A stretch of DNA of 64,000 nucleotides. It comes from a virus. The notes under the pieces are model-generated. The model searched no databases. It was not told the origin of the DNA and was given only the letters and a program-made list of their open reading frames with translations. Below are positions 1,242 through 63,294 of this stretch, in pieces (position 1 is the first letter of the stretch; the number at the start of each line of letters is the position of its first letter). Both the position numbers and the translations under genes were made by a program. Location: the IMG/VR virus record IMGVR_UViG_3300045988_183612. One strand, 5' to 3'.

Positions 1242-1252
1242 ATATGACAGAA
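1242..1252 (-). promoter_or_regulatory. TTCTGTCATAT motif (inverted, serving the minus-strand mob gene)
   Basis: ATATGACAGAA on the + strand is the reverse complement of TTCTGTCATAT. It lies ~40 bp upstream of the mob start at 1206. Confidence 0.55.
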
Positions 1253-1323
1253 AAAATAATAAAGTGTATATATACACTTATAATTAATTTATTTTTTTAT
1301 TAATTTTGCAGTTTGATTTTTTT

Positions 1324-1334
1324 TTCTGTCATAC
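1324..1334 (+). promoter_or_regulatory. TTCTGTCATAT-family motif
   Basis: TTCTGTCATAC. C is 47 bp before ATG 1373. Confidence 0.6.
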
Positions 1335-1372
1335 ATTATTTAGTAATAAAAAATGAAAGGAGCATATATAGT

Positions 1373-2194
1373 ATGAATATGCAGACAATAAGCCTTTTTG
1401 AAGAGGGCAATGGAGTACATATTGTTATTCCAAATACAAAAATTGAAGAAATAAAGAATCTAATGGCAGCATTATTAATTAATAATGTTGGAGCAAATAC
1501 AAAGGAGTCAGTTTTAGATGTAGAAGCTCCTGTTGTTGCAAAGGAAATCGCTCCAACACTTGAAGATATTAATGCAGAAAAAGAAAAAATCTCGTCTAAA
1601 ATTGCTGAATCAGAAATAACTGAAATGGTTGAAGAACCAGTTTTAGATGAAAAGGAATTGCCTTGGAATCAGGATGATACTTCTAATGATTCTGTTGATG
1701 ACACTATTGCTGACACTATTGTTGATACCATTAATGAACCTATTAATGAAGAAGCAAATAATGATTCACAGGTATCAGAAAGTACAGCAGTTATTACAGA
1801 GGTCCCAGAATATAATGAACAGGTCGATGATGAATTAGTTTCAAGTGAAAATGAAGATGTATCTGAAGCTGTTTACAATAATTCAAATACTGATGTATCA
1901 GACACAGTAAATGTTGACCCAGTAGAAGAATCATCAGAATCAGAATCTTCAGTTCCAGTAACACCTAATGATAGTTCAGATGATTCTGAAATGGTATTAA
2001 AGATTTCTGCTAATAAAAATGCAGATGCAGTTATAGGCGGTCTTGAAGCCACATTAATGTACGCTAAGATTACTCCAGAAATGAAGCTTAGCAATGATAA
2101 GACAGCAGTTATTATTAATGCAGAAAATCTTGATCAGAATACAAAGGACATTATCCTTAGAACGGCAAGAATAACTAGAAACTTTGATATGTAA
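1373..2194 (+). CDS. acidic Ser/Asp/Glu-rich hypothetical protein
   Basis: AAAGGAG RBS 8 nt before the ATG at 1373. The ORF track starts at 1313, but the RBS supports 1373. Confidence 0.55.
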   Translation: MNMQTISLFEEGNGVHIVIPNTKIEEIKNLMAALLINNVGANTKESVLDVEAPVVAKEIAPTLEDINAEKEKISSKIAESEITEMVEEPVLDEKELPWNQDDTSNDSVDDTIADTIVDTINEPINEEANNDSQVSESTAVITEVPEYNEQVDDELVSSENEDVSEAVYNNSNTDVSDTVNVDPVEESSESESSVPVTPNDSSDDSEMVLKISANKNADAVIGGLEATLMYAKITPEMKLSNDKTAVIINAENLDQNTKDIILRTARITRNFDM

Positions 2195-2215
2195 AATGAA
2201 AAGGAGAAAGTATAT

Positions 2216-2386
2216 ATGAGTACAAGTGAGTATGTTGATATGTTACTTAAGGGAAGAAAACAAATGATTTCATATTTAGAATATCTGGAAATGCTTTCCA
2301 TTTTCGATTTAGCGAAGGAATTGGAAGACAATAATATTAGAATCAATATTAATGATTCTCATATAACAGGCTGTATAACAGCTTAA
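2216..2386 (+). CDS. small hypothetical protein (56 aa)
   Basis: AAAGGAGAAAG RBS before the ATG. Followed by a terminator at 2393..2424. Confidence 0.45.
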   Translation: MSTSEYVDMLLKGRKQMISYLEYLEMLSIFDLAKELEDNNIRININDSHITGCITA

Positions 2387-2392
2387 GAAAAA

Positions 2393-2424
2393 AAGGTTGG
2401 GCAATAAAGCTCAACCTTTTTTAT
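2393..2424 (+). terminator. rho-independent terminator
   Basis: AGGTTGGGCAATAAAGCTCAACC stem-loop plus T-run. Confidence 0.6.
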
Positions 2425-2553
2425 GTTTAATTATTGCAAATTCACCCGTCTTTGAATCTACAATACTAAATTAATTTTTAATCAAAAAAACTACATAACA
2501 TTTCCTCCTTTAATAAAACGCTATTTATATATATGACAGATTTTATTTTTTAT

Positions 2554-2564
2554 GTCTGTCATAT
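2554..2564 (+). promoter_or_regulatory. TTCTGTCATAT-family motif
   Basis: GTCTGTCATAT, 91 bp before ATG 2647. Confidence 0.5.
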
Positions 2565-2646
2565 TATTTTTAGATGTTTTGTGTAATAAAAACTTCAATA
2601 TTATTTTAGAAAGGAAGTTGCTAATATAGCAACAAGGTAGTAATTT

Positions 2647-3363
2647 ATGAACAATAAAAATAACCCAATTAATTCATATAATATGTTGAGTAGACTACCG
2701 GATATCAGGCCAGTTCATTCTCTTATTATTATTTTTAATCTTGCACTTATTATAGGTGGACTTGTTTGCGAAATTATTTTTTACGGAACAGAAAATTTTG
2801 CAGGTGTAATTGCCAGCGGAATAATTGCGGGTTCAAATTTATTATGCTTTTTGATTCTTAAAAATGTTATTAATTGGTACCCTCAGGCTAGATTTGAAAT
2901 ATATAATGAATATATTGATTTTAGCTATTTTGTACCTGGAATTGACAAAATGACAGATTATAAAGTTGAACAAATTGACCATATTAAAGAAACATTTGAT
3001 GGTTTAACAGTAACAGGTATTATAAAACATAAACCTGCAGCAAAACTTAATTATGAAGCACTTGATAAATACAAATTTTATATTGCTAATAAGGAATTAA
3101 AAAACAAAATATTATTAGAATTGCAGGAATTCAAAAAAAGGCAATATATTAATGAATTAAATAATTGTTTAGCTGATAAACCAGAAGAAAAAAATAATGA
3201 TTCAAATAATATAGATATAGTTACTGAATCTACTGAAATGCCTGATTTAGAACAAAATATAAAAATGGTTAAAGACGAAATGGCAAAAAAACTAAACGAT
3301 TCTGATAGGATGGATATTACAATTGATAAACCAAATATAAAAGTAACTACTTCAACAAAATAA
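2647..3363 (+). CDS. hypothetical membrane protein
   Basis: 238-aa ORF with two N-terminal hydrophobic helices. Upstream motif at 2554. Confidence 0.55.
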   Translation: MNNKNNPINSYNMLSRLPDIRPVHSLIIIFNLALIIGGLVCEIIFYGTENFAGVIASGIIAGSNLLCFLILKNVINWYPQARFEIYNEYIDFSYFVPGIDKMTDYKVEQIDHIKETFDGLTVTGIIKHKPAAKLNYEALDKYKFYIANKELKNKILLELQEFKKRQYINELNNCLADKPEEKNNDSNNIDIVTESTEMPDLEQNIKMVKDEMAKKLNDSDRMDITIDKPNIKVTTSTK

Positions 3364-61274: not shown

Positions 61275-61565
61275 ATGACAGATAAAGAATTTCATGATTT
61301 GAATAATTATAAAAAAGAAATAGGAAAAATGAGTGTTGAAATGGCAAATGCAAAATTCCATAAAGGATATTCTGATGATTCTGATGGATATAGTTTTGAA
61401 GATTCAATAGCTGATTTAGAATTTAAGCGAGATATTCTAAGAGGAGTTGATCCTATTGACGCATTATGTGACCTACAAGAGAAAACACTTGTATATCAAT
61501 TATTAAATCCTAATCCAAATATTTATGAGCAGGAAGAAATTTTTGATTACGATGAGGATTATTAA
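61275..61565 (+). CDS. hypothetical protein
   Basis: AAAGGA RBS, start MTDKEFHDL. Confidence 0.45.
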   Translation: MTDKEFHDLNNYKKEIGKMSVEMANAKFHKGYSDDSDGYSFEDSIADLEFKRDILRGVDPIDALCDLQEKTLVYQLLNPNPNIYEQEEIFDYDEDY

Positions 61566-62147
61566 TTACAGTAAAATAAAATCTACCATAGGAGCAGGAA
61601 CGAATTTCTTCTCAAAGAAAGCAAGAAAAGAACAATCGAAAATATTGAAACTAATGGCTTTGAAGAATATGACATTGAAACTGAAGAAGAATGGAAAGTT
61701 ATTAAAAATGAAATTTTAGATATTTGTATTGAATGTATTAAGAAGCTAAACCTTTGGAGACCCACTTATACCTTGTACTCAGCATAATTTTATCAGCTAT
61801 CCAATATAGTATTAAATTTGCACTTTAGAATTTATATCCTGACATACCACATTAAAACTAAATACAATCTGATTTTTGTATAGAAGATGATTGAAGCCAT
61901 ACCCTGTTATATTAAACTGCTAAACACATGTATAGCTCTTAATGTTAACAGGGTATTTTATGTTTTTCTCTGACATTCAGATACTTCTGTTTGGATATCA
62001 GATCATATGCTTATTTTTACATATAGGTTCCCCATCAAACCATAAATTAGTAACTTAAAGCTTCGGCAGGATTACTGATATTACTTGAAAATATAAACGG
62101 CACACTTAATGATATATGCTTTTTATGTCAAAAATTTAATTTAAAAT

Positions 62148-62158
62148 TCTGCCATATT
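62148..62158 (+). promoter_or_regulatory. TTCTGTCATAT-family motif (CTGCCAT variant)
   Basis: TTCTGCCATAT, 60 bp upstream of the next copy. Confidence 0.35.
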
Positions 62159-62205
62159 AACTTTAGCAATTTAAATTTCTGAATAAAAAATTTAAATATT
62201 ATTTA

Positions 62206-62216
62206 TTCTGTCATAT
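62206..62216 (+). promoter_or_regulatory. TTCTGTCATAT-family motif
   Basis: TTCTGTCATAT, 46 bp before ATG 62254. Confidence 0.6.
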
Positions 62217-62253
62217 TAATAAATAAAAAATATAAATAAGAAAGGAAATAAAA

Positions 62254-62601
62254 ATGAGTAAAATACAATTATTAAAAAGAAGCAAAAAAATGTTTTATTG
62301 TTTCCCGGCAATTTGTCTGTTGTTATCAGGATGTGGATTATTTAATAATAGTGTGCAACCAATTAATATAGTTACAGAGGAAAGTACTGTTTCAAACAAT
62401 AATCAGACTTATATTGATAACAAAGAATATGACAAAATAGTTATAAACAGTGAAGAAGAAGCTGAAGCTTTATTAAATGCCAATACATTACCGGTAACAA
62501 TCAATACTGAATCAATTTCTTATGATGGTCCTATAGACCCTGAAACTATTAATCAAGAAGTAAAAGAAAAATATGGAGAAAATGCTGAATTTGACATGTA
62601 G
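62254..62601 (+). CDS. lipoprotein (lipobox LSGC)
   Basis: Signal peptide with LLSGCGLF lipobox. Motif at 62206. Ends at TAG, but the frame stays open and protein-like for 63 more codons to 62790. Confidence 0.55.
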   Translation: MSKIQLLKRSKKMFYCFPAICLLLSGCGLFNNSVQPINIVTEESTVSNNNQTYIDNKEYDKIVINSEEEAEALLNANTLPVTINTESISYDGPIDPETINQEVKEKYGENAEFDM

Positions 62602-62842
62602 GAATGGAATATCAAAATAACTACATACACATTACCGGATGGAACAAAACTTCAAACAAGTAATGAAACTTCTTTTAATTCAGGAAGCAGTTTTATATTT
62701 AATGATAATAACAATAATGAGTATCGTTTTTATAATTTTATGGAAAACCAAGAGGGTTTTTATGTAATTCCCAGCAAATTATATCAGCTATAAAAGAGCA
62801 GATTAATTAATGAAAATCAAAAAATAAGAAAGGAAACATAAA

Positions 62843-63106
62843 ATGATAAAAAATTCTGATACTTTCAAAAATTGTACAAATTTAACAGAAATTGTAGGTA
62901 TTAATAATTGTACAAGTTTAACAGAGATAACAATACCAGATAGTGTAAAAACTATAAGTATGTACGCATTTAATAAATGTACTAATTTAACAAGTGTAAT
63001 ATATAAAGGAACTACATATACAACTAAAAGTAGCTTATCCAGTGCTTTAAAAGCTAATGGTGTAAAATGTGATTCAGATGCATTTAATAATGCAGGATTA
63101 AAATAA
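62843..63106 (+). CDS. BspA-type leucine-rich repeat fragment protein
   Basis: Two CTNLTEI...IPDSVKTI...AFNKCTNLTSV repeats. Followed by terminator 63122..63149. Confidence 0.5.
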   Translation: MIKNSDTFKNCTNLTEIVGINNCTSLTEITIPDSVKTISMYAFNKCTNLTSVIYKGTTYTTKSSLSSALKANGVKCDSDAFNNAGLK

Positions 63107-63121
63107 AATATAAATATCTTT

Positions 63122-63149
63122 AAGCCGGTTACTTTTGTAGCCGGCTTTT
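63122..63149 (+). terminator. rho-independent terminator
   Basis: AAGCCGGTTACTTTTGTAGCCGGCTTTT. Confidence 0.7.
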
Positions 63150-63283
63150 CTGATGCGTTTTTAAATCATTTAATACTATAAAAATTGTTAGCATTGTATA
63201 TAATTAAATGACAAAAACAAATACAAGAACCATTAAAAAAGATATTGAAAACAAATATTTTGTGTCAAATAATTTATTTAATT

Positions 63284-63294
63284 TTCTGTCATAT
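63284..63294 (+). promoter_or_regulatory. TTCTGTCATAT-family motif
   Basis: TTCTGTCATAT, 46 bp before ATG 63332. Confidence 0.6.

Follow-up and report, generated by a model that had tools for sequence, protein, structure and literature searches.

The CTGTCAT-containing motif that recurs ahead of genes in this DNA is probably the core of an element-specific class of extended −10 promoters, read by the element's own sigma factor (54760-55788). We infer this from the statistics, position, orientation and conservation of the motif, together with the residues and phylogenetic isolation of the sigma factor. If true, transcription of the element would be largely separate from that of its host.

Copy number and placement of the motif

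In the window (the whole 64-kb stretch of DNA analysed), the exact 11-mer TTCTGTCATAT occurs 17 times (15 plus strand, 2 minus) against 0.13 expected, with no shuffle reaching 17; its core, CTGTCAT, occurs 46 times (38 plus, 8 minus) against 6.5 expected and a shuffle maximum of 14. The density is non-random, as an earlier note on this DNA had claimed; its figure of more than 40 copies is right when the core or a degenerate motif is counted, whereas the exact 11-mer is rarer. A position-weight scan of the kind that note had suggested, with a cut-off of at least 12 bits, gave 40 matches on the plus strand and 4 on the minus, compared with ~0.2 per strand in Markov controls; the promoter-like sites in the window number 44. 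The scan added one-mismatch variants in the equivalent position at 3955 (CTGACATAT), 28996 (ATGTCATAT), 30527 (CAGTCATAT) and 62149 (CTGCCATAT), and a further such variant lies at 36012 (CCGTCATAT).

Plus-strand CTGTCAT copies are intergenic in 36 of 38 cases and coding in 2; the minus-strand copies divide into 2 intergenic and 6 coding, one antisense copy within a coding region being that at 23411-23421. As coding DNA makes up 53.2 kb and intergenic DNA 10.8 kb, copies in coding DNA are no more frequent than chance predicts, and those between genes on the plus strand are ~80-fold denser. Similar frequency in coding DNA and random orientation, which the earlier note took as arguing against a promoter, are not what is found, the sites being gene-oriented.

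A Shine-Dalgarno (SD) sequence and start codon follow 37-49 nt downstream of the motif C in 30 of the 43 measured sites, close to the 40-48 bp first proposed; 12 sites depart from it with longer leaders of 55-460 nt, so the motif is tied to the transcript start and not to the start codon. It lies within 55 nt after 21 of 26 strong plus-strand terminators, in agreement with the earlier description, and the terminator T-run merges with the T-tract of the motif. Terminators are enriched 3-4 fold (16, 19 and 12 observed vs 4.8, 5.1 and 4.2 expected). Sites share the orientation of the gene they precede: the relaxase gene on the minus strand has an inverted copy (1242-1252) 44 nt before its ORF start; this copy is not the only inverted one, a second intergenic copy having its C at 2539. 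The motif is directly upstream of 37 of the 65 plus-strand ORFs and absent from 28, 19 of which start at most 30 nt after the preceding gene and are probably operon-internal. The statement that it drives essentially every transcription unit is slightly overstated. Because an intrinsic terminator at most gene ends adjoins a motif promoter, most genes would form terminator-promoter-gene cassettes strung along the genome. The sites are listed below with predicted promoter coordinates (−18 to +1); distances are in nt from the motif C to the start codon.

1234..1252, minus: class I promoter site TTCTGTCATAT, Mob_Pre relaxase ORF 1206..1, distance 44
1324..1342, plus: promoter site TTCTGTCATAC, gene 1373-2194, distance 47
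2523..2541, minus: promoter-like site ATCTGTCATAT, back to back with 2556(+), then SD and ATG-TAG only
2554..2572, plus: promoter site GTCTGTCATAT, gene 2647-3363, distance 91
3953..3971, plus: variant site TTCTGACATAT, gene 4000-4200 and PARP-domain gene 4217-5503, 17.4 bits, distance 45
5709..5727, plus: promoter site, upstream one of a tandem pair, short transcript to hairpin before 5830
5828..5846, plus: promoter site, HD-GYP gene (Pfam) 5878-7092, distance 48
8385..8403, plus: class II promoter (ATGTAA 8363-8368), ~200 nt leader to terminator 8568-8592
8603..8621, plus: promoter site, PBP1-type gene 8647-10980, distance 42, 13 nt after terminator
11002..11020, plus: promoter site, gene 11066-11353
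12171..12189, plus: promoter site, gene 12225-12839, distance 52, after terminator 12112-12141
12909..12927, plus: promoter site TTCTGTCATTC, gene 12953-13168, distance 42
14146..14164, plus: promoter site, gene 14219-15538, after terminator 14111-14137
16243..16261, plus: promoter site, gene 16287-17030, distance 42, 6 nt after terminator
17066..17084, plus: class II promoter (ATGTAA 17044-17049), UvrD gene 17181-19106, 113 nt leader with conserved RNA motif
19173..19191, plus: class II promoter (GTGTAA 19151-19156), core CTGTCATAA, gene 19218-20984
21344..21362, plus: promoter site, gene 21391-21777, distance 45
21836..21854, plus: promoter site CTGTCATTA, RecJ-like gene 21883-23637
23722..23740, plus: promoter site, gene 23768-24259, distance 44
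24301..24319, plus: class II promoter (ATGTAA 24279-24284), RecA gene 24350-25444, distance 47
25467..25485, plus: promoter site without nearby gene, transcript would stop at terminator 25844-25885
28519..28537, plus: promoter site, gene 28567-28989
28994..29012, plus: variant site TTATGTCATAT, then copy of the leader-RNA motif and terminator 29131-29158
29208..29226, plus: promoter site, gene 29253-29525 and primase-like gene 29522-30460, distance 43
30525..30543, plus: variant promoter TTCAGTCATAT, gene 30571-31005, 16.4 bits, distance 44
31084..31102, plus: class II promoter (ATGTAA 31062-31067), flotillin-like gene 31224-32798, 138 nt leader with RNA motif
32981..32999, plus: promoter site, UvrD-like gene 33024-35945, distance 41
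36010..36028, plus: variant site CTCCGTCATAT, CAAX-protease gene 36108-36992, after terminator 35971-36000
36961..36979, plus: promoter site within last codons of 36108-36992, DNA methylase gene 37006-37902, distance 43
38236..38254, plus: promoter site, small ORF 38281-38430, then guanylate kinase gene 38457-39020
39084..39102, plus: class II promoter (ATGTAA 39062-39067), opens 810 nt without clear gene
40498..40516, plus: promoter site, gene 40549-41598, distance 49
41683..41701, plus: promoter site, gene 41730-42881, distance 45
42949..42967, plus: promoter site CTGTCATGT, DnaE N-terminal piece 42993-44834, 6 nt after terminator
46024..46042, plus: promoter site, gene 46072-46308, distance 46
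48086..48104, plus: promoter site CTGTCATTG, genes 48131-49144
49206..49224, plus: promoter site CTGTCATAA, 5'-3' exonuclease gene 49248-50129, distance 40
50618..50636, plus: promoter site CTGTCATTT, genes 50666-51552
51593..51611, plus: promoter site CTGTCATAA, DnaE C-terminal piece 51639-53324, distance 44
53398..53416, plus: class II promoter (ATGTAA 53376-53381) of the operon ending with the sigma gene, distance 37, after terminator 53346-53368
57022..57040, plus: class II promoter (ATGTAA 57000-57005), DUF5688 gene 57068-58003, distance 44
62147..62165, plus: variant site TTCTGCCATAT, ATGTCA 18 nt upstream, tandem with 62208
62206..62224, plus: promoter site, gene 62254-62601, distance 46
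63284..63302, plus: class II promoter (GTGTCA 63262-63267), YqeY-like gene 63332-63769, distance 46

Predicted promoter anatomy

The layout of the motif agrees with an extended −10 promoter of the sigma-70 family that lacks a −35 element. Numbered as a promoter, it would comprise a T-tract (−24 to −17), C−16 T−15 G−14 T−13 C−12 A−11 T−10 A−9 T−8, a weakly specified −7, then T−1 and a purine at +1. C−12, A−11 and T−10 are invariant in 44/44 sites of the window clade. T stands at C+15 in 76-85% and A or G at C+16 in 89-90% of sites (39 window sites; 153 distinct family sites), and with this signal at a fixed distance, the invariant A falls exactly 11 nt ahead of a pyrimidine-purine start dinucleotide, and a single base separates the TG from the hexamer, the arrangement seen in TGnTATAAT promoters. 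The predicted start site lies 16 nt beyond the first C of CTGTCAT, 8 nt past the last T of the 11-mer, which would give leaders of 24-32 nt with the SD sequence inside. The register suggested before, with CATAT as −10 core and a start 7-12 nt past the motif, was reached here independently; the TG/extended −10 reading, the start-site signal at +16 and a second promoter class (ATGTAA-N18) go beyond it.

The canonical TTGACA-N16-18-TATAAT is not enriched in the window (154, 120 and 128 vs 159, 132 and 146 expected). Two features count against this anatomy. T at −7 is normally the second most conserved −10 base, yet here it is not conserved (A 50%, T 38%). At ~10 sites, the class II promoters, a second element, TTTTTTATGTAA, lies exactly 18 nt upstream of the motif and spans −40 to −35, too far for a normal −35; these sites carry a pentamer related to the motif, TGTAA/TGTCA, exactly 24 nt upstream.

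The sigma factor and the element family

We propose that host core RNA polymerase reads the motif when bound to the element's RpoD-derived sigma, encoded in this operon:

53437..54348, plus: CAAX (Rce1-like) membrane protease, opens the operon, synteny conserved across all sigma clades examined
54352..54747, plus: 131-aa protein without assigned function, directly upstream of the sigma gene in every case
54760..55788, plus: 342-aa sigma factor derived from RpoD, proposed to read the motif

Judged by its sequence, the sigma factor is an orphan RpoD-derived lineage and not sporulation-type, scoring 179 bits on RpoD models vs about 90-98 on SigK and SigB/F/G models, far under the RpoD equivalog cut-offs. 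The likeness to sporulation sigma promoters drawn in the earlier note goes no further than C at −12, and there is no sporulation-type −35. Among 1.8 billion representatives, only four other clusters (50% identity) score above the bulk of RpoD hits, and a search of 5.8 billion 90% clusters found only close relatives. The protein is at most 42% identical to any RpoD, whereas RecA of the element shares 71-76% identity with its Lachnospiraceae counterparts, which points to accelerated change of the sigma.

It keeps Y430, W434, R436, Q437 and the TG-contacting R451, H455 and E458. The position of W433 is H/N and that of T440 is Y/I in this lineage (Y in the window, I in the sister clade); among the nearest RpoD hits, W433 is present in 113/113 and T440 in 107/113. 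W433 is part of the tryptophan pair that nucleates melting, and its replacement counts against this sigma as reader, its competence being an assumption; so does region 4.2, which keeps the −35-contact residues R584, E585, R588 and Q589, yet a −35 element is absent. T440I and Q437H are known suppressors of a −12 T-to-C change and H455/E458 contact −14 G (PMC2613000), while R451 senses −18 (PMC3130263). Region 3.0 would read TG, and the altered region 2.4 would favour C over T at −12. Since the sigma's own operon carries a motif promoter, positive feedback would result.

Within one element family, three clades have both motif and sigma, with the same motif at the same distance in a clade whose sigma is 51% identical and in a third whose RecA is 80% identical. 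Two more distant sigma clades keep the CAAX-small ORF-sigma synteny; their residues at 433/437/440 differ, and the motifs found there at the equivalent position are looser or shifted (CTGT[C/T]AT.., CTTATATAT), a sigma-motif covariation that covers about 15 sites. In the P0357 clade, CTGTCATAT and CTTATATAT are both in use, which counts against the preferred reading. The composite ATGTAA-N18-CTGTCATAT has only single, chance-level matches in 185,579 species genomes and many in viral and metagenome contigs, overwhelmingly on this family. In ~0.9 Mb of sampled family DNA, the motif-linked sigma is the only sigma-70-family ORF; as sampling took in part of the element, a further sigma or polymerase may lie elsewhere on it. 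A dedicated promoter class with this sigma as candidate reader, as first proposed, fits every computational test run.

The element is very large, uncultured, AT-rich and mobile, and comes from human gut bacteria. Family contigs reach 812 kb, and the family looks linked to Lachnospiraceae. The sigma had been called phage-encoded, a label that is not borne out by the sampled part, which is plasmid-like (relaxase, ParM-like protein, VirB11-like ATPase, Cas9, HipA-like) and in which no phage structural genes were found.

Alternative readings

The sites could be real extended −10 promoters that a sigma of the host, housekeeping or other, recognises, with a smaller, different or stage-limited regulon left to the element's sigma; we consider this unlikely. 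TG plus A−11, T−10 and A−9 is near the Gram-positive extended −10, AT-rich organisms are known to use −35-less promoters with T-rich upstream regions, CTTATATAT of the P0357 clade resembles an ordinary −10, and transcription must precede the making of a sigma whose own operon carries the motif. However, the C at −12, invariant in the 44 sites, would be strongly deleterious for primary sigmas unless 437 or 440 were changed (PMC2613000), and exactly this type of change is found in the element's sigma. The unconserved T−7 also argues against a host sigma, as does the composite motif, a repeated feature in none of the species genomes.

That CTGTCATAT is instead the site of an element-encoded activator or appropriator recruiting host polymerase to a true −10 downstream, like the MotA box of phage T4 middle promoters, is improbable. 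Invariance over nine positions is expected of a protein-binding box more than of a −10 element, and the class II pentamer and the conserved 131-aa neighbour of the sigma gene would suit such a factor; but no TAnnnT-like hexamer follows (columns +15 to +20 read T-A-W-M-A-A, the final T not conserved), a hexamer-derived start would leave only 12-20 nt to the start codon, and the motif is non-palindromic and fits the TGn-hexamer-N6-start geometry exactly.

Still less probable is that the motif serves a non-canonical RNA polymerase whose gene lies in another part of the element, a situation known from some jumbo phages. The element, up to 0.8 Mb in size, was sampled in part, and many large ORFs lack annotation; against this, the large unknown ORFs inspected hold no polymerase-like domain or DxDGD motif, the anatomy follows sigma-70-family rules, and a suitably altered sigma is present.

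We give little credence to a role in the 5' leader RNA, as a signal for processing, stability or translation, with promoters further upstream; such a role would suit the tight start-codon distance at most sites but not the long leaders or the merging of terminator T-runs with the T-tract; no other promoter-like signal is enriched, and the motif has no associated structure or Rfam family. Least credible is a polar DNA signal unconnected with transcription (for replication, segregation, packaging or methylation): strand bias is strong in a replicon with strong GC skew and a DNA methylase gene is present, but such signals are not restricted to gene 5' flanks, whereas here coding DNA holds chance numbers and the copy for the minus-strand gene is inverted.

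Distribution and anatomy of the box

The window has a GC content of 27%, and its ORFs lie nearly all on the plus strand. The exact 11-mer TTCTGTCATAT occurs in it 17 times against 0.13 copies expected; the core CTGTCAT (with the 11-mer around it, herein the box) occurs 46 times against 6.5 expected, with 38 copies on the plus and 8 on the minus strand. On an ORF map comprising 53.2 kb of coding and 10.8 kb of intergenic DNA, 36 plus-strand copies are intergenic and 2 coding, while the minus-strand copies divide into 2 and 6, respectively. As the coding copies are about as numerous as chance predicts, only intergenic DNA has an excess, and this on its sense strand; a similar frequency inside coding regions, named in the earlier note as evidence against a promoter class, is not found. 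A weight-matrix scan (threshold ≥12 bits) returned 40 plus-strand and 4 minus-strand sites against about 0.2 expected and also picked up one-mismatch variants in equivalent positions; a further variant, CCGTCATAT, lies at 36012. Promoter-like sites in the window total 44.

The box is placed precisely with respect to genes. Counting from its first C (C+n), a Shine–Dalgarno (SD) sequence and start codon follow at 37 to 49 nt in 30 of 43 measured sites, and 12 of the remainder have leaders of 55 to 460 nt. Intrinsic-terminator-like hairpins are enriched 3- to 4-fold in the window, and the motif follows within 55 nt of 21 of the 26 strong plus-strand terminators. It lies directly upstream of 37 of 65 plus-strand ORFs; 19 of the 28 without it are probably operon-internal (≤30 nt from the preceding gene). 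The overall description in the earlier note is thus confirmed with two qualifications: “more than 40 copies” is true of the core and not of the exact 11-mer, and the units served are most of them, not “every transcription unit”. The inverted copy said to serve mob is indeed present, at 1242-1252 on the minus strand, 44 nt ahead of the start of the Mob_Pre relaxase ORF.

An alignment of 39 sites from the window and a second one of 153 distinct family sites yield the same logo. Both alignments show a T-rich tract 8 to 1 nt ahead of the C, followed by an invariant C-T-G-T-C-A-T (an invariance partly built in, as the sites were chosen by CTGTCAT) and then A (92%) and T (90%). The base after this final A-T is poorly specified (A 50%, T 38%); the next five are weakly T/A-rich, and in the family alignment C+15 is T in 76% and C+16 is A or G in 89% of sites. 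If the purine at C+16 is taken as +1, the A of the core falls at -11, CATATN occupies -12 to -7 and TG lies at -15/-14, one base upstream of the hexamer. The TG is invariant in all 39 window and 153 family sites. The A at -11 is present in 39/39 and 153/153 of these CTGTCAT-selected sites and is kept in all five one-mismatch variants too; C, A and T at -12, -11 and -10 are unvarying in the 44 sites of the window clade. There is no information content at -35 to -30, the region of a -35 hexamer, in either alignment, and consensus TTGACA/TATAAT pairs are not above shuffles anywhere in the window.

The predicted geometry coincides exactly with that of extended -10 promoters (TGnTATAAT) that start at a pyrimidine-purine step. 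As in Bacillota promoters of this type, TG precedes by one base a hexamer with A in second position and no -35 is needed; a T-rich spacer near -17/-18 and a purine start 7 nt past the hexamer are further likenesses. Unlike them, the box has an invariant C (not T) at -12, together with invariant C-16 and T-13, and T at -7 is not conserved; the level of conservation is far above that of any housekeeping promoter set. We consider it very probable that the box is a promoter, at which transcription would start at the C+16 purine, 7 nt past the hexamer, giving leaders of 24 to 32 nt including the SD sequence.

Two other ways of reading the site were rejected. With CTGTCA as a variant -35 (4/6 match to TTGACA), a -10 element 17 nt on would put the start in or after the SD sequence, and no hexamer is conserved there. 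If instead T+15 A+16 opens a TAnnnT -10 element and CTGTCATAT serves as a MotA-like box, the final T is not conserved and the spacer has 6 nt in place of 11 to 13. T4 late (TATAAATA) and middle (MotA box) promoters likewise have a short, highly conserved box and no canonical -35, and in that compact genome too the box precedes many genes by a short fixed distance; their sequence and geometry differ. The resemblance to sporulation-type promoters proposed in the earlier note extends to the CATA core, as sigE/sigK/sigG promoters also have C-12 followed by ATA (C-12 A-11 T-10 A-9 here), and ends there: the matching -35 is absent, TG and C-16 are conserved instead, and the sigma factor of the element is nearest to RpoD models.

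Class II sites, leader RNA and other regulatory features

About 10 window sites (class II; sites without ATGTAA are herein class I) carry TTTTTTATGTAA (or GTGTAA, ATGTCA), in which ATGTAA, at -40 to -35, is separated from CTGTCAT by exactly 18 nt. A normal -35 would lie about 5 bp further downstream; the upstream element may be recognized by sigma region 4, the alpha subunits or an activator. The T-tract, present in class I, is usually missing from class II. Behind class II sites lie the sigma-containing operon, RecA, UvrD and a flotillin-like gene, among others. Family-wide, 66% of class II sites have no SD/start codon within 56 nt, compared with 35% of other sites, which suggests that class II promoters often drive long leaders or non-coding transcripts.

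A leader-RNA-like repeat of about 55 to 60 nt, TTATCG(A/C)A..AT.GCAAGAAAACTCCATCCGACAATAGTCGGTTGTGAGTAGTTCA, lies 22 to 58 nt downstream of some promoters, e.g., those of UvrD and flotillin-like genes.

Leader-motif copies and other repeated or unusual regulatory features (window coordinates unless a family locus, L, is named)
3357-3430, plus strand: leader motif
17090-17146, plus strand: leader motif
29040-29113, plus strand: leader motif
31125-31198, plus strand: leader motif
46975-47033, plus strand: leader motif
L001 6200-6270: leader motif
L146-L274: more than 30 further distinct copies of the leader motif
5709-5846: tandem arrangement (promoter, short region, terminator, second promoter, gene)
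8385-8621: tandem arrangement
25467-25885: tandem arrangement, with terminator at 25844-25885
28994-29226: tandem arrangement
62147-62224: tandem arrangement
2523-2572: divergent back-to-back motif pair, C at 2539 (minus) and at 2556 (plus)
23411-23421, minus strand: exact 11-mer, antisense within the RecJ-like ORF 21883-23637
59020-59146: direct repeats ATTTACACTA(C/T)TTA

A 12-bp hairpin in the leader motif, proposed by hand and then backed by pair counts, is 82% paired, compared with 20 to 45% after sliding of the partner columns; its 16 compensatory cells are a number reached by 0 of 500 shuffles. RNAalifold predicted no structure for the motif. At gathering and E-value thresholds, no Rfam family accounts for the long leaders; the leader motif likewise has no Rfam match, and no tRNAs were found. 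The motif may be a cis-regulatory or antitermination element.

The tandem arrangements look like short non-coding transcripts or attenuators; among them, the transcript predicted from the promoter at 25467 ends at its terminator just ahead of a motif-less 844-aa gene. In the divergent pair, the minus-strand copy at 2539 is followed by a good SD sequence and then ATG-TAG, and may thus mark a decayed gene or a gene-less promoter. As only 0.13 exact copies are expected in the whole window, the one within the RecJ-like ORF may be an antisense promoter. The direct repeats lie upstream of a gene (59147-59437) without a CTGTCAT promoter and may be binding sites of another regulator.

The sigma factor of the element as candidate reader

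The ORF at 54760-55788 (plus strand) encodes a 342-aa sigma factor in which Pfam finds only regions 2 and 4, while the alignment to RpoD spans regions 1.2 to 4.2. It scores 179 bits on RpoD models, below their cut-offs (354 to 572), and about 90 to 98 bits on SigK and SigB/F/G models, all below cut-off; only the sigma-70 superfamily model was passed. The protein is an RpoD derivative and not a sporulation-type sigma. Protein searches with it returned only RpoD-level matches (≤42% identity). Among 5.8 billion clusters, the only matches other than RpoD at ≤42% identity are a variant at 98% and a relative at 51%, and an exhaustive search of 1.8 billion representatives added three further clusters over the RpoD bulk (P0356, P0357 and P0358; 248 to 226 bits, next match 176 bits); a back-translated pattern search of IMG/VR for more relatives was uninformative. 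RecA of the element is 71 to 76% identical to Lachnospiraceae RecA, and the ≤42% of the sigma therefore indicates unusually fast divergence.

This is the sole sigma-70-family ORF detected in ~0.9 Mb of (redundant) family DNA. A 437-aa ORF at family locus L179, by eye colinear with regions 2.4 to 4, was rejected as a second sigma (hhalign probability 0.6%; nothing with hmmsearch). Neither an RNA polymerase domain nor a DxDGD motif was found in the large ORFs of unknown function inspected. The sigma gene is always preceded by genes for a CAAX (Rce1-like) membrane protease and a soluble, domain-less protein of 125 to 142 aa (53437-54747 in the window; loci L001, L278 and L279; all clades examined). 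The pair may form a regulatory module for the sigma, e.g., an anti-sigma or a processing step.

Residues of the sigma factor of the element (E. coli numbering; 51% clade, relatives with a sigma 51% identical)
Y430, W434, R436, Q437: conserved; region 2.3/2.4
R451: conserved; senses -18 (PMC3130263)
H455, E458: conserved; contact G of TG (PMC2613000)
R584, E585, R588, Q589: conserved; region 4.2, -35 contacts
W433: changed to H (N in the 51% clade); one of the tryptophan pair nucleating melting
T440: changed to Y (I in the 51% clade); -12 contact

Among the nearest RpoD matches W433 is found in 113/113 and T440 in 107/113; the sigma of the P0003 clade has I at the T440 position. No suppressors of a -12 T-to-C change other than T440I and Q437H are known (PMC2613000). 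With H455, E458 and R451 conserved, as in readers of extended -10 promoters, and T440 changed, the sigma seems equipped for TG and altered in a way expected to favor C at -12. The change lies on the same face of the region 2.4 helix as those in the E. coli T440I and Q437H mutants, in which the preference at -12 shifts from T to C (PMC2613000). Unlike these laboratory point mutants, it is natural and fixed, and is accompanied by loss of W433 and by hundreds of putative cognate promoters.

We propose that box and sigma together would constitute an extended -10 promoter system whose sigma is supplied by a mobile element. Given that the box is a promoter, the sigma of the element is its likely reader; promoter, start at C+16 and this reader taken together are, as the product of such partial confidences, somewhat favored. 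The reader is probably not a primary sigma. The principal rival, reading of the sites by a host sigma, is unlikely: C is invariant at -12, T-7 is missing, and the composite class II motif, ATGTAA-N18-CTGTCATAT, is absent from cellular genomes, with single chance-level matches only in 185,579 species genomes. Several observations fit the proposed system poorly, among them the non-conservation of T-7, the loss of W433, the retention of region 4.2 despite the absence of a -35 and the dependence of the sigma operon on the same box, which is awkward for making the first sigma molecules.

Sigmas on mobile elements with their own promoter class include SPO1 gp28 and gp33/34, T4 gp55, pBS32 SigN and TcdR/BotR/TetR/UviA. 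Such phage and plasmid sigmas redirect the host core polymerase to a distinct consensus on the element, and autoregulation is common; they are small, highly divergent group 3 to 5 proteins that serve a temporal class or few operons. In contrast, the sigma described here spans regions 1.2 to 4.2 as a full RpoD-type protein. Its putative box is near-invariant over 9 to 11 bases, has C at -12 and stands ahead of most genes of a replicon hundreds of kilobases long. We found no evidence in this analysis for a clamp-dependent or appropriator mechanism. In the literature searched, neither the motif nor the sigma lineage nor the element is described, and nothing relevant on promoters of huge gut elements was found.

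Box, sigma and element across related clades

In the 51% clade the synteny of split DnaE, CAAX protease, small ORF and sigma is retained, and CTGTCATAT lies equally distant from start codons; a third clade (RecA 80% identical, 33% GC) also carries CTGTCATAT at that distance. Two more distant sigma clades, P0356 and P0357, keep the synteny of CAAX protease, small ORF and sigma.

Sigma residues 433/437/440 and boxes in two distant clades
P0356: W/Q/I; boxes CTGTCATAT, CTGTTATAT, CTGTTATTT
P0357: H/Q/R, plus R436I; boxes CTTATATAT (three), CTTGTATAT, CTTTCATGT, CTGTCATAT (three)

Since both the -12-contact residues and the boxes of these clades differ from those of the window clade, where C, A and T at -12 to -10 do not vary, the few sites available suggest that sigma and box drift together.

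A scan of IMG/VR with the 14-mer TTTTTCTGTCATAT was dominated, among the matches listed, by single chance matches, and the composite class II pattern was therefore used instead. It gave six matches on one 103 kb IMG/VR contig, 97 to 98% identical to the window, and at least 119 matches in metagenome contigs, mostly human-gut contigs of 100 to 460 kb whose local motif density, among the matches listed, equals that of the window. Exact window proteins occur on hundreds of human-gut metagenome contigs, with lengths including 341, 423, 587 and 812 kb (the largest); the sigma cluster member identical to the window protein comes from 245 contigs. One NCBI metagenome bin carrying window proteins is labelled Lachnospira pectinoschiza. 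Near-identity searches of phage and plasmid collections with 20 kb of window sequence returned nothing, and the element is not in GTDB species genomes as a multi-hit locus.

The earlier note had called the sigma phage-encoded. The gene does lie on the element, and one family member of 103 kb is listed in IMG/VR; however, no capsid, portal, terminase or tail genes are found among the ~45 window ORFs and 24 family ORFs from outside it (a sample of part of the element), and the gene content is plasmid-like, with a Mob_Pre relaxase, an actin-like ALP/ParM N-domain protein and a T2SSE/VirB11-like ATPase. On this gene content we call it a putative giant plasmid-like extrachromosomal element, though it may also be a phage. 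Replication and repair genes of the window comprise RecA, DnaE in three ORFs, two UvrD-like helicases, RecJ, a primase-like protein, a 5'-3' exonuclease and a methylase. Family loci outside the window (L157-L274) add a type II Cas9 (L163, 1352 aa), two RecD2-type helicases, a topoisomerase, an NAD-dependent ligase, a VirB11-like ATPase, an actin-like partition protein, NAPRTase, HipA-like proteins, BspA-type LRR proteins and IS605/TnpB copies. Two known elements were considered and rejected. Lak megaphages (Prevotella host, TAG recoding, ~476 to 660 kb, 26 to 31% GC) overlap in size and GC, but here TAG is a stop, SD sequences are strong and RecA is nearest to Lachnospiraceae; the “Hodor” gut megaplasmid was excluded by its GC (44 to 47%) and size (~357 kb).

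More tentatively, the family may consist of giant extrachromosomal elements (~0.3 to 0.8 Mb, AT-rich, uncultured) that reside in Lachnospiraceae of the human gut and have largely orthogonal transcription, in which a captured and re-specified copy of the primary sigma (T440Y/I, W433H/N) would read C-12, several hundred genes would be arranged as terminator-promoter cassettes with an invariant extended -10 box, the ATGTAA-N18 class and the leader RNA would add control, and sigma and box would have drifted jointly in sister clades. If confirmed, the system is a large-scale natural counterpart of sigma-70 specificity mutants, setting one region 2.4 position against hundreds of C-12 promoters, so that the rules of -12 recognition could be tested directly on an evolved pair; it would also show how a very large mobile element keeps its own gene control within a host. 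The invariant box, above all in the composite pattern, is a near-specific metagenome probe for contigs of the family, which is prevalent yet has no description in the literature searched. A compact and apparently orthogonal Bacillota sigma/promoter pair could serve the engineering of gut Clostridia.

The window carries cargo not usually seen on mobile elements, namely a PARP-domain protein, an HD-GYP phosphodiesterase, a GGDEF cyclase, a class A penicillin-binding protein and a flotillin-like protein (4217-10980 and 31224-32798), besides CAAX proteases. The predicted functions of this cargo suggest manipulation of host c-di-GMP signalling and of the cell envelope. DnaE (DNA polymerase III alpha) is encoded in pieces, at 42993-44834, 45209-45967 and 51639-53324 in the window, at 2606-8573 in L001 and at 2720-8682 in L279. 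The 374 nt gap between the first two window pieces (44835-45208) has no motif and no Rfam intron match; in sister clades these two pieces flank an HNH_3 endonuclease ORF.
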